Shown one piece after another: positions 7,909-7,942 of a stretch of 11,795 bases of DNA. The notes beneath the pieces were generated by a model. It saw only the letters and a list, made by a program, of their open reading frames with translations, did no database searches and was not told the DNA's origin. Both the position numbers and the translations under genes were made by a program. Numbering within the stretch: the first letter of the stretch is position 1; the number at the start of each line of letters is the position of its first letter. Location of the stretch: IMG/VR virus record IMGVR_UViG_2728369560_000006, positions 1-11,795 of that record, one strand, 5' to 3'. Origin of the DNA: a virus. Taxonomy: Duplodnaviria > Heunggongvirae > Uroviricota > Caudoviricetes.

Positions 7909-7942
7909 AAAGCGCCCTACAGGACGCTTAGCTCTTTAACAA
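7909..7942 (+). promoter_or_regulatory. nut-like antitermination element: hairpin followed by consensus boxA (GCTCTTTAACAA)
   Basis: Exact 12/12 match to the boxA consensus GCTCTTTAACAA at about 7931-7942 on the transcribed strand of the leftward-operon leader, preceded by an imperfect hairpin AGCGCC-CTACA-GGACGCT (about 7911-7928). Confidence 0.5.

Follow-up and report, generated by a model that had tools for sequence, protein, structure and literature searches.

A reverse-strand terminator-like hairpin and an rrn-type boxA follow a conserved leader RNA in the pL operon of an N-less lambdoid prophage

The DNA analyzed here, an 11,795-nucleotide (nt) stretch of the IMG/VR record IMGVR_UViG_2728369560_000006 (referred to as the window in its whole length), belongs to a lambdoid prophage or phage of the SfII/SfIV/SfV/mEp460 kind, and the leader of its leftward early (pL) operon carries a short module in which a hairpin is followed by a consensus boxA. 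An original prediction, made from the sequence alone, had treated the 34 bases at 7909-7942 as a single element that might bring about antitermination independently of an N protein. Our analysis leans, by a modest degree, toward a different arrangement, in which two signals face opposite strands, one being a terminator that would serve inserted cargo and the other an anti-Rho boxA that would serve the pL transcript, with a put-like leader RNA, designated R1, lying upstream of both. The parts of this arrangement are as follows.

7834-7903, plus strand: R1, a 70-nt structured leader RNA with a closing helix (P1), a central invariant region and a hairpin (P2)
7904-7909, minus strand: an A6 run corresponding to the U6 tract of the predicted minus-strand terminator (the T-run of the terminator-scan match)
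7910-7929, minus strand: predicted intrinsic terminator stem-loop for convergent cargo gene(s), from the terminator scan
7931-7942, plus strand: boxA (GCUCUUUAACAA) on the pL transcript, an exact consensus match and presumed NusB/NusE (S10) site

The sequence GCTCTTTAACAA occurs exactly at 7931-7942 on the plus strand, one base 3' of the hairpin, and is the sole exact match in a window where this 12-mer would be expected by chance 0.0014 times (2 x 11795 / 4^12). Compared with the gamma-proteobacterial boxA consensus GYTCTTTAANA (PMC5725501), the segment GCTCTTTAACA at 7931-7941 has 0 mismatches and is the only perfect match in the window, and the 13-mer at this site, GCTCTTTAACAAT, is identical to that of the E. 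coli rrnB leader. The boxA lies on the strand of cI, xis and int, approximately 180 nt downstream of pL/OL. On the pR side, where a second boxA had been suggested as worth looking for, none was found in the window (from cro to Q), and matches in approximately 100 related loci did not rise above the chance level. A boxA-like sequence, GCTCATTAAGA, is present at 542-552 on the minus strand, downstream of Q, with one mismatch and a broken core; 1.55 such matches are expected by chance.

The distribution of the boxA among related phages was followed in two scans. The scan anchored on boxA itself gathered at least 120 phage contigs and, being biased by its anchor, was used for the discovery of variants alone and not for frequencies; in most of its contigs the order is R1, A-tract, hairpin, boxA and TCTGG. 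The unbiased scan was anchored on the R1 core and comprised 120 stretches, with boxA enrichment computed over 1.07 Mb. Consensus boxA matches in this sample fell within 300 nt 3' of R1 and on the same strand in 10 of 14 cases, where approximately 0.06 would be expected, an enrichment at this position of more than 100-fold, and the remaining 4 of 14, located elsewhere, equal the chance expectation of approximately 4. All boxA variants in the R1-anchored sample read (A/C/T)GCTCTTTAA(C/A)AA, so that only position -1 and the N of GYTCTTTAANA vary, and the functional consensus tolerates variation at both. Across 16 distinct contexts the boxA core is invariant, whereas hairpin loop and 3' flank are free to change, and the orientation is always sense to pL. 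The boxA also occurs without the hairpin in three pL leaders (loci L013, L022 and L107) and without R1 in two others (Klebsiella Kp4882-1 and locus L032). The exact boxA in the correct orientation in the pL leader, already pointed out in the original prediction, is found on this evidence to be conserved and position-specific as well. Judged by its sequence, it is a genuine host-type signal and more than a chance match, and we presume it to be a candidate NusB/NusE binding site.

The complete module is not a constant part of the operon. Hairpin and boxA were present in approximately 27 of the 120 R1-anchored stretches, and the remainder run from R1 into other sequence. SfII, which shares the immunity region of the window, and SfV both have R1 and the same operon but neither the hairpin nor the boxA. 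The absence of the 12-mer from relatives with the same operon had been named beforehand as an observation that would speak against the element; it is indeed absent from these two phages, but other relatives keep it, and the module is therefore better described as accessory than as essential to the operon. Of 5426 complete E. coli genomes, 1531 have prophage matches to at least part of the region 7834-7990, and 721 contain at least 80% of it; where genome records were listed, the region either has no annotation or is covered by a hypothetical protein.

The hairpin differs markedly between the two strands. Read on the plus strand, the segment at 7910-7929 forms an imperfect hairpin, AAGCGCC-CUACA-GGACGCUU, with a predicted fold of -7.5 kcal/mol (z = -1.85); read on the minus strand, it forms 8 contiguous pairs including one G·U, with a fold of -11.5 kcal/mol. 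The plus-strand structure is the weaker one because a conserved C·A mismatch takes the place of the G·U pair. The terminator scan calls the hairpin on the minus strand only (AAGCGTCCTGTAGGGCGCTT TTTTGTTGCT), with a stem of 8 pairs (5 of them G-C), a 4-nt loop and then TTTTTGTTGCT, and it predicts no plus-strand terminator at the hairpin. Every hairpin-bearing variant retains an A-tract of at least 4 A, and the stem is kept while the loop varies, one variant having a fully compensated stem. Most likely, the hairpin ends transcription of an inserted gene that faces the other way. It does precede boxA at 7910-7929, as had been described, but it looks less like an rrn boxB-type element of the plus-strand RNA than like a canonical terminator on the minus strand. 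A near-identical hairpin, with the same stem and one changed loop base, is found inverted after an HK022-type put in two other loci (L236 and L319).

The sequence that follows the boxA contains the gene that such a terminator would serve, and the relevant features of the window are these.

7988-8194, plus strand: ORF68 (open reading frame, ORF), a small pL-operon gene of unknown function, from its translation (phrog_1744, E = 6e-35)
8059-8084, minus strand: a second terminator-like hairpin from the terminator scan (-15.6 kcal/mol, z = -3.6)
8166-8600, minus strand: ORF144, a convergent cargo gene (moron) of unknown function, equivalent to SfIV gp36 (phrog_5286, E = 1.5e-90)
8711-8934, plus strand: an STnc100/PasD-like prophage small RNA (sRNA) gene (Rfam RF02076, E = 7.9e-07; 43.4 bits against a gathering score of 47)

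The longest ORF immediately downstream of boxA lies on the minus strand in 15 of the 16 distinct boxA-bearing contexts, and the sixteenth has a shadow frame of one cargo family alone. These convergent ORFs usually encode 145-175 amino acids (259 in one case), and their stop codons lie 3-30 nt past boxA in 11 contexts and 110-270 nt past it in the others. They represent at least six unrelated families, five of which match PHROGs 5286, 1244, 6315, 3983 and 7681. In many loci boxA is followed by plus-strand ORFs of approximately 100 amino acids; we rejected these as shadow frames of the real minus-strand genes, which have PHROG matches. Among boxA-less contexts, real-looking convergent proteins were seen in 2 of 52 (L186 and L205) when judged by eye, and most of the other long minus-strand ORFs in these contexts were set aside as junk frames, likewise by eye. 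The association of boxA with a convergent gene gives p = 1e-13 by Fisher's exact test, or 2e-9 on a conservative crude count, figures that overstate the independence of contexts related by descent and recombination. A further heuristic, requiring a plus-strand ORF to start within 150 nt, did not discriminate between contexts and was dropped.

In the slot between R1 and the sRNA gene, different phages carry different convergent genes of unknown function, among them those for proteins with a coiled coil and zinc ribbon, for proteins with two transmembrane segments and for a secreted protein; comparison of the cargo proteins with PADLOC gave no matches. The cargo block of the window (8150-8600) is low in GC (32-44%). 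The first plus-strand ORF after boxA is ORF68, which encodes 68 amino acids including 2 Arg; as stated in the original prediction, it has no arginine-rich motif, although its start lies one base away from the one implied there. ORF68 has no Pfam match, and a diverged homologue occupies the equivalent place in locus L029. The downstream terminator that had been noted is a strong one: located at 8885-8931 in the path of pL transcription, it forms the 3' end of the sRNA gene (-23 kcal/mol, z = -4.9). The STnc100/PasD sRNA family has been described (bioRxiv 10.64898/2026.05.13.724894), and the annotated ORF SfII_35, which overlaps the STnc100-like sRNA gene, is probably spurious.

The placement of the module in a pL leader follows from the operators around the repressor gene, for which the features are listed here.

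6956-7648, plus strand: cI (helix-turn-helix and S24 peptidase)
7668-7685, plus strand: cI terminator
7702-7753, plus strand: OL/pL, with two TTGCATAT(T/C)TCGCAA operators at 7702-7740, read from the sequence
7725-7730 and 7748-7753, plus strand: pL hexamers, -35 TTGCAT and -10 TATCTT, separated by a 17-nt spacer

Operators of the form TTGC-N7-GCAA are common to OL (7702-7740) and to OR (6870-6935), which lies between cro and cI, and since the same operator type is found at OR, the module that follows OL is placed in the pL leader. OL/pL comes after the cI terminator, and two other loci (L024 and L117) have the same -10 region immediately 5' of R1. A strict sigma-70 promoter scan of the window called neither early promoter (OR or OL/pL), and we infer pL from the operators and hexamers. 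No N-like protein was detected by Pfam across both early operons, which include the pR operon in its entirety up to Q, or in PHROGs. This agrees with the earlier statement that no N protein is recognizable, as does the lack of an arginine-rich motif in ORF68, and SfII, SfV and SfIV have likewise been reported to be without N, cII and cIII (PMC3851460). Since N is absent, antitermination independent of N, by way of Nus factors, RNA or both, is a reasonable idea. The original prediction had raised it, but assigned it to the hairpin and boxA and missed the candidate immediately upstream.

That candidate, R1, is the most widely conserved piece of the leader in distant BLAST comparisons, more so than the hairpin and boxA. 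It is common to SfV, Citrobacter phiNP, Pantoea AH07, Yersinia YeP1-3 and Pectobacterium ZF40, and is found as well in Salmonella ST64B and SPN3UB, in mEp237 and in Klebsiella phages. More than 100 copies were collected from IMG/VR, and 49 distinct sequences were aligned. In helix P1, the 5' ACGAA pairs with the 3' UUCGU, and in other members CCACC pairs with GGUGG, while P2 is a CCUGG/CCAGG hairpin with many compensatory variants. Over the 49 sequences, 94% of the cells in the helices are paired, and at 10 pairs both partners change; these values were equalled in 0 of 500 shuffles, controls with slid pairing fall to 17-47% paired, and RNAalifold independently recovers both P1 and P2. The central 20 nt are invariant in a sample that was itself selected on that segment. 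A covariance model of R1 finds one copy in the window (95 bits, E = 3.6e-32), with none on the pR side, and R1 occurs once per locus among related loci. It begins a few bases past the pL start in SfIV, SfV and at least eight other immunity types, and approximately 75 nt further down in the window and SfII; in SfII, SfV, SfIV and ZF40 it comes after the annotated cI. With Rfam, scanned over the full window at E <= 1, no family was found at 7834-7945, and a full-text search with the R1 and boxA-flank sequences returned unrelated primer matches only. A second conserved motif, AGGTKTAAACGTTCCGCTGGCCGGCGWTAAGGCA, lies 3' of R1 in many boxA-less phages (L148, L165 and others); it is also found at 2975-3005 of L005 and in L020 and L067, and in a few loci it precedes the hairpin and boxA. 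It may be another leader RNA element.

Put RNA of the HK022 type overcomes terminators with no help from protein factors, acting in cis on RNA polymerase by way of the beta' zinc-binding domain. R1 resembles the put sites of HK022 and HK639 in its length of approximately 70 nt, in its two helical arms and in its position just after pL in N-less lambdoid phages; with HK639 it also shares the single left-operon copy, and with HK022 putL the short motifs ACGAAC(A)GGC and CAGGAUGA. By this analogy, R1 is a likelier RNA antiterminator than the flagged hairpin and boxA, and a candidate for a put-analogous function. Its topology, in which the 5' end pairs with the 3' end, differs from the put structure (PMC9378689). 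A boxA after an HK022-type put was found in 1 of 71 cases in one scan, and that one (L324) is a truncated fusion, the put being cut within stem II and joined directly to CGCTCTTTAACAATCTGG approximately 48 nt after the put core.

The reading we find somewhat more probable than its competitors combined may be given as a sequence of proposed steps. The sequences with their conservation, the structure of R1, the strand asymmetry of the hairpin and the association with convergent genes are what the data show; Nus binding, action against Rho, minus-strand termination and the activity of R1 are inferred. The module would form the left edge of a cargo slot within the pL operon of a lambdoid prophage devoid of N, a slot that reaches from R1 to the sRNA gene. 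Read on the minus strand, the A6 run and hairpin (7904-7929) would act as a Rho-independent stop for ORF144, transcribed from 8600 toward 8166, and would keep cargo transcription out of pL/OL and from running antisense to cI. On the nascent pL RNA, boxA would recruit the host NusB-NusE (S10) pair, which together with NusG, NusA and SuhB could convert the polymerase into a Rho-resistant elongation complex of the rrn type. Untranslated RNA is a natural substrate of Rho, and a complex of this kind would be able to cross the approximately 0.9 kb that is untranslatable in the pL direction (8195-9117), namely the antisense of the cargo and the sRNA gene. The nascent R1 RNA, acting like HK022 put, would make the polymerase resistant to intrinsic terminators such as that at 8885-8931.

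This division of labor bears on the proposal that the boxA element itself carries the polymerase through the downstream terminator. The rrn-type boxA/Nus complex alone counters Rho and is not known to defeat strong intrinsic terminators, which makes that proposal unlikely. For the terminator at 8885-8931, R1 is therefore the more plausible agent, and by analogy with put we consider that R1 probably deals with it. A broader version, which we put forward tentatively, holds that prophages of the SfV/SfIV/ST64B/ZF40 kind control the early left operon through a two-part, protein-free leader composed of R1, as a new class of RNA that modifies RNA polymerase and is analogous to HK022 put in function but distinct in structure, and an rrn-type boxA module. 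It is possible, though we would not call it probable, that within such a leader the boxA is added together with a reverse-strand terminator wherever convergent cargo makes pL untranslatable.

Several observations weigh against this interpretation. The R1 covariance model, run with filters off against HK022 putL and putR and the annotated HK639 putL, gave no match at E <= 10; this result does not support R1 as an HK022 put homologue, and since put homology is not detectable we refer to R1 as put-analogous and not as a member of the put family. HK022 put has itself been found to suppress Rho-dependent termination (PMC9378689), and if R1 has the same action, boxA would be redundant in part. Besides the relatedness of the contexts mentioned above, hairpin, boxA and cargo could be a single exchangeable cassette that is inherited as a whole. 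The slot of SfII holds a minus-strand ORF (SfII_36) but neither boxA nor this hairpin, and together with the convergent genes of L186 and L205 this means that boxA is not obligatory and is at most helpful. In the window itself, ORF144 ends 224 nt from boxA, and the second hairpin at 8059-8084, which sits within ORF68 and 82 nt past the ORF144 stop, is the nearer of the two, so the hairpin at 7910-7929 may here be a back-stop. Finally, the promoter scan identified no promoter for ORF144.

Other explanations of the module must be set beside the one with two opposed signals. The hairpin and boxA could form one rrn-like boxB-boxA unit on the pL RNA that alone drives N-independent read-through, which we regard as unlikely. 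There are points of likeness to the rrn leader, whose antiterminator consists of a boxB hairpin, boxA and boxC and works with NusB, NusE, NusA, NusG, SuhB and S4: the boxA is identical over 13 nt (GCUCUUUAACAAU), the rrnB hairpin ends 2 nt 5' of boxA and a hairpin here is similarly spaced (1-3 nt), the two elements usually co-occur, the phage lacks N, and the boxA of the window is promoter-proximal on a largely untranslated transcript. However, the hairpin is weak on the strand that such a unit would use and carries there its conserved mismatch, whereas it is better formed on the opposite strand and flanked there by a terminator U-tract; the A-tract that encodes this U-tract is conserved and would be of no use to an rrn boxB. 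The three leaders that keep boxA without the hairpin also speak against a single unit, as does the absence of a boxC: the rrn leader has the GU-rich UGUGUGGG, whereas the window has UCUGGUCCCCAUCAACAAG after boxA, and boxC was seen in no variant. The rrn boxB has in addition been reported to be of little importance for rrn antitermination (PMC12360218). The inefficiency of rrn-type complexes at strong intrinsic terminators such as 8885-8931 applies here too, and the window differs from the rrn leader in being a phage pL operon with an extra structured RNA upstream.

It is also conceivable, but improbable, that the module is a mere bidirectional terminator or recombination linker, in which a boxA inherited from one capture event (for example from an rrn leader) has no dependence on Nus factors. 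The module does lie at mosaic breakpoints (homology with SfII stops at 7899, and downstream sequences are wholly different among loci), the identity of hairpin plus boxA is very high, and in L324 the boxA stands at a recombination joint with the truncated put. A passive linker would not readily account for the pattern of change, in which divergence has affected the loop, the base 5' of boxA and the sequence beyond TCTGG while GCTCTTTAA is unchanged and the boxA substitutions are exactly those that the functional consensus tolerates (PMC5725501), nor for a boxA that is kept without the hairpin and is always sense to pL; the scan, moreover, predicts no plus-strand terminator. Least probable in our estimation is a negative boxA of the suhB type, by which NusB/NusE would repress translation of ORF68, promote Rho termination and attenuate the pL operon. 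The boxA does lie 45 nt before the ORF68 ATG (7943-7987 between them), and a boxA within 50 nt of an ATG is the arrangement that Baniulyte et al. used for suhB-like targets (PMC5725501; PMC12360218). In most contexts, however, a convergent gene and no plus-strand gene follows boxA, which makes a general role in the translational control of a downstream ORF unlikely, and attenuation of an xis/int operon would oppose the antiterminator-like RNA upstream.

The reading with two opposed signals, to which we return, has partial precedents in other systems. The closest to the boxA half is BoxA-only, N-independent protection from Rho, which is documented for untranslated transcripts of rRNA and CRISPR arrays (PMC7665894; PMC12360218). 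As there, a stand-alone consensus boxA precedes a long non-translated transcript without N, and protection from Rho is the role to be expected; in the window, however, the untranslated stretch is the antisense of a convergent prophage cargo gene. The nutL and nutR sites of lambda are alike in placing a boxA in an early leader, for nutL that of the leftward operon, but a lambda nut site consists of boxA followed by boxB and works with N and a pR-side site, both of which the window lacks. The order in the window is reversed, no hairpin with a GNRA-like pentaloop follows boxA, and the boxA is of the rrn type, whereas that of lambda reads CGCUCUUA; the original prediction had likened the hairpin-then-boxA order more to rrn than to lambda nut. 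The hairpin half resembles the terminators of prophage morons, with a GC-rich 8-bp stem, a tetraloop and a U6 tract that come 17-45 nt after the stop codon of a cargo gene low in GC and with an orientation of its own. It differs from them in that many unrelated cargo genes have the same terminator in common and in its fusion to a boxA on the sense strand.

The components of this arrangement, boxA, intrinsic terminators and put-type antitermination, are all already known. In the literature searched, we did not find a description of a boxA of the rrn type in pL leaders of lambdoid phages without N, of such a boxA fused to a reverse-strand terminator at a slot for convergent cargo, or of the R1 RNA, and most of the interest lies in the combination of R1 with boxA and less in the 34 bases originally flagged. 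To our knowledge, HK022-type put is the only system for which delayed-early expression in N-less lambdoid phages is understood in detail. Should the boxA be functional, N-independent BoxA/Nus protection from Rho would extend to phage early operons, beyond rRNA and CRISPR arrays, and a phage would have borrowed the Nus antitermination complex of ribosomal RNA without N. The pairing of a terminator in one direction with a boxA in the other would then provide a simple rule by which cargo could be tolerated against an essential operon. R1 would represent a second, independent solution to antitermination by RNA only and a useful comparison for structures of put with RNA polymerase, and it bears on the expression of xis and int, and hence on prophage induction, in Shigella and pathogenic E. 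coli.

The remaining genes of the window are arranged around these elements as follows.

721-1086 (Q) and upstream, minus strand: cro, a CII(CP76)-like gene, an O-like gene, PerC, Dam, a protein with a LexA DNA-binding domain, RusA, KilA-N, DUF968 and Q
Up to 10514-11698 (integrase), plus strand: a YfbR/HD-like gene, a DUF551 gene and then the integrase gene

Within the pR operon, a protein of 108 amino acids (3304-3627, minus strand) consists of the LexA DNA-binding domain alone (PF01726, E = 3e-19). The O-like replication gene at 4771-5709 (minus strand) contains repeated units of the AAAATCTGAC type, which are probably the iterons of an origin; an Rfam match to 'mir-5880' at 5334-5408 (minus strand) is a false positive caused by these repeats.

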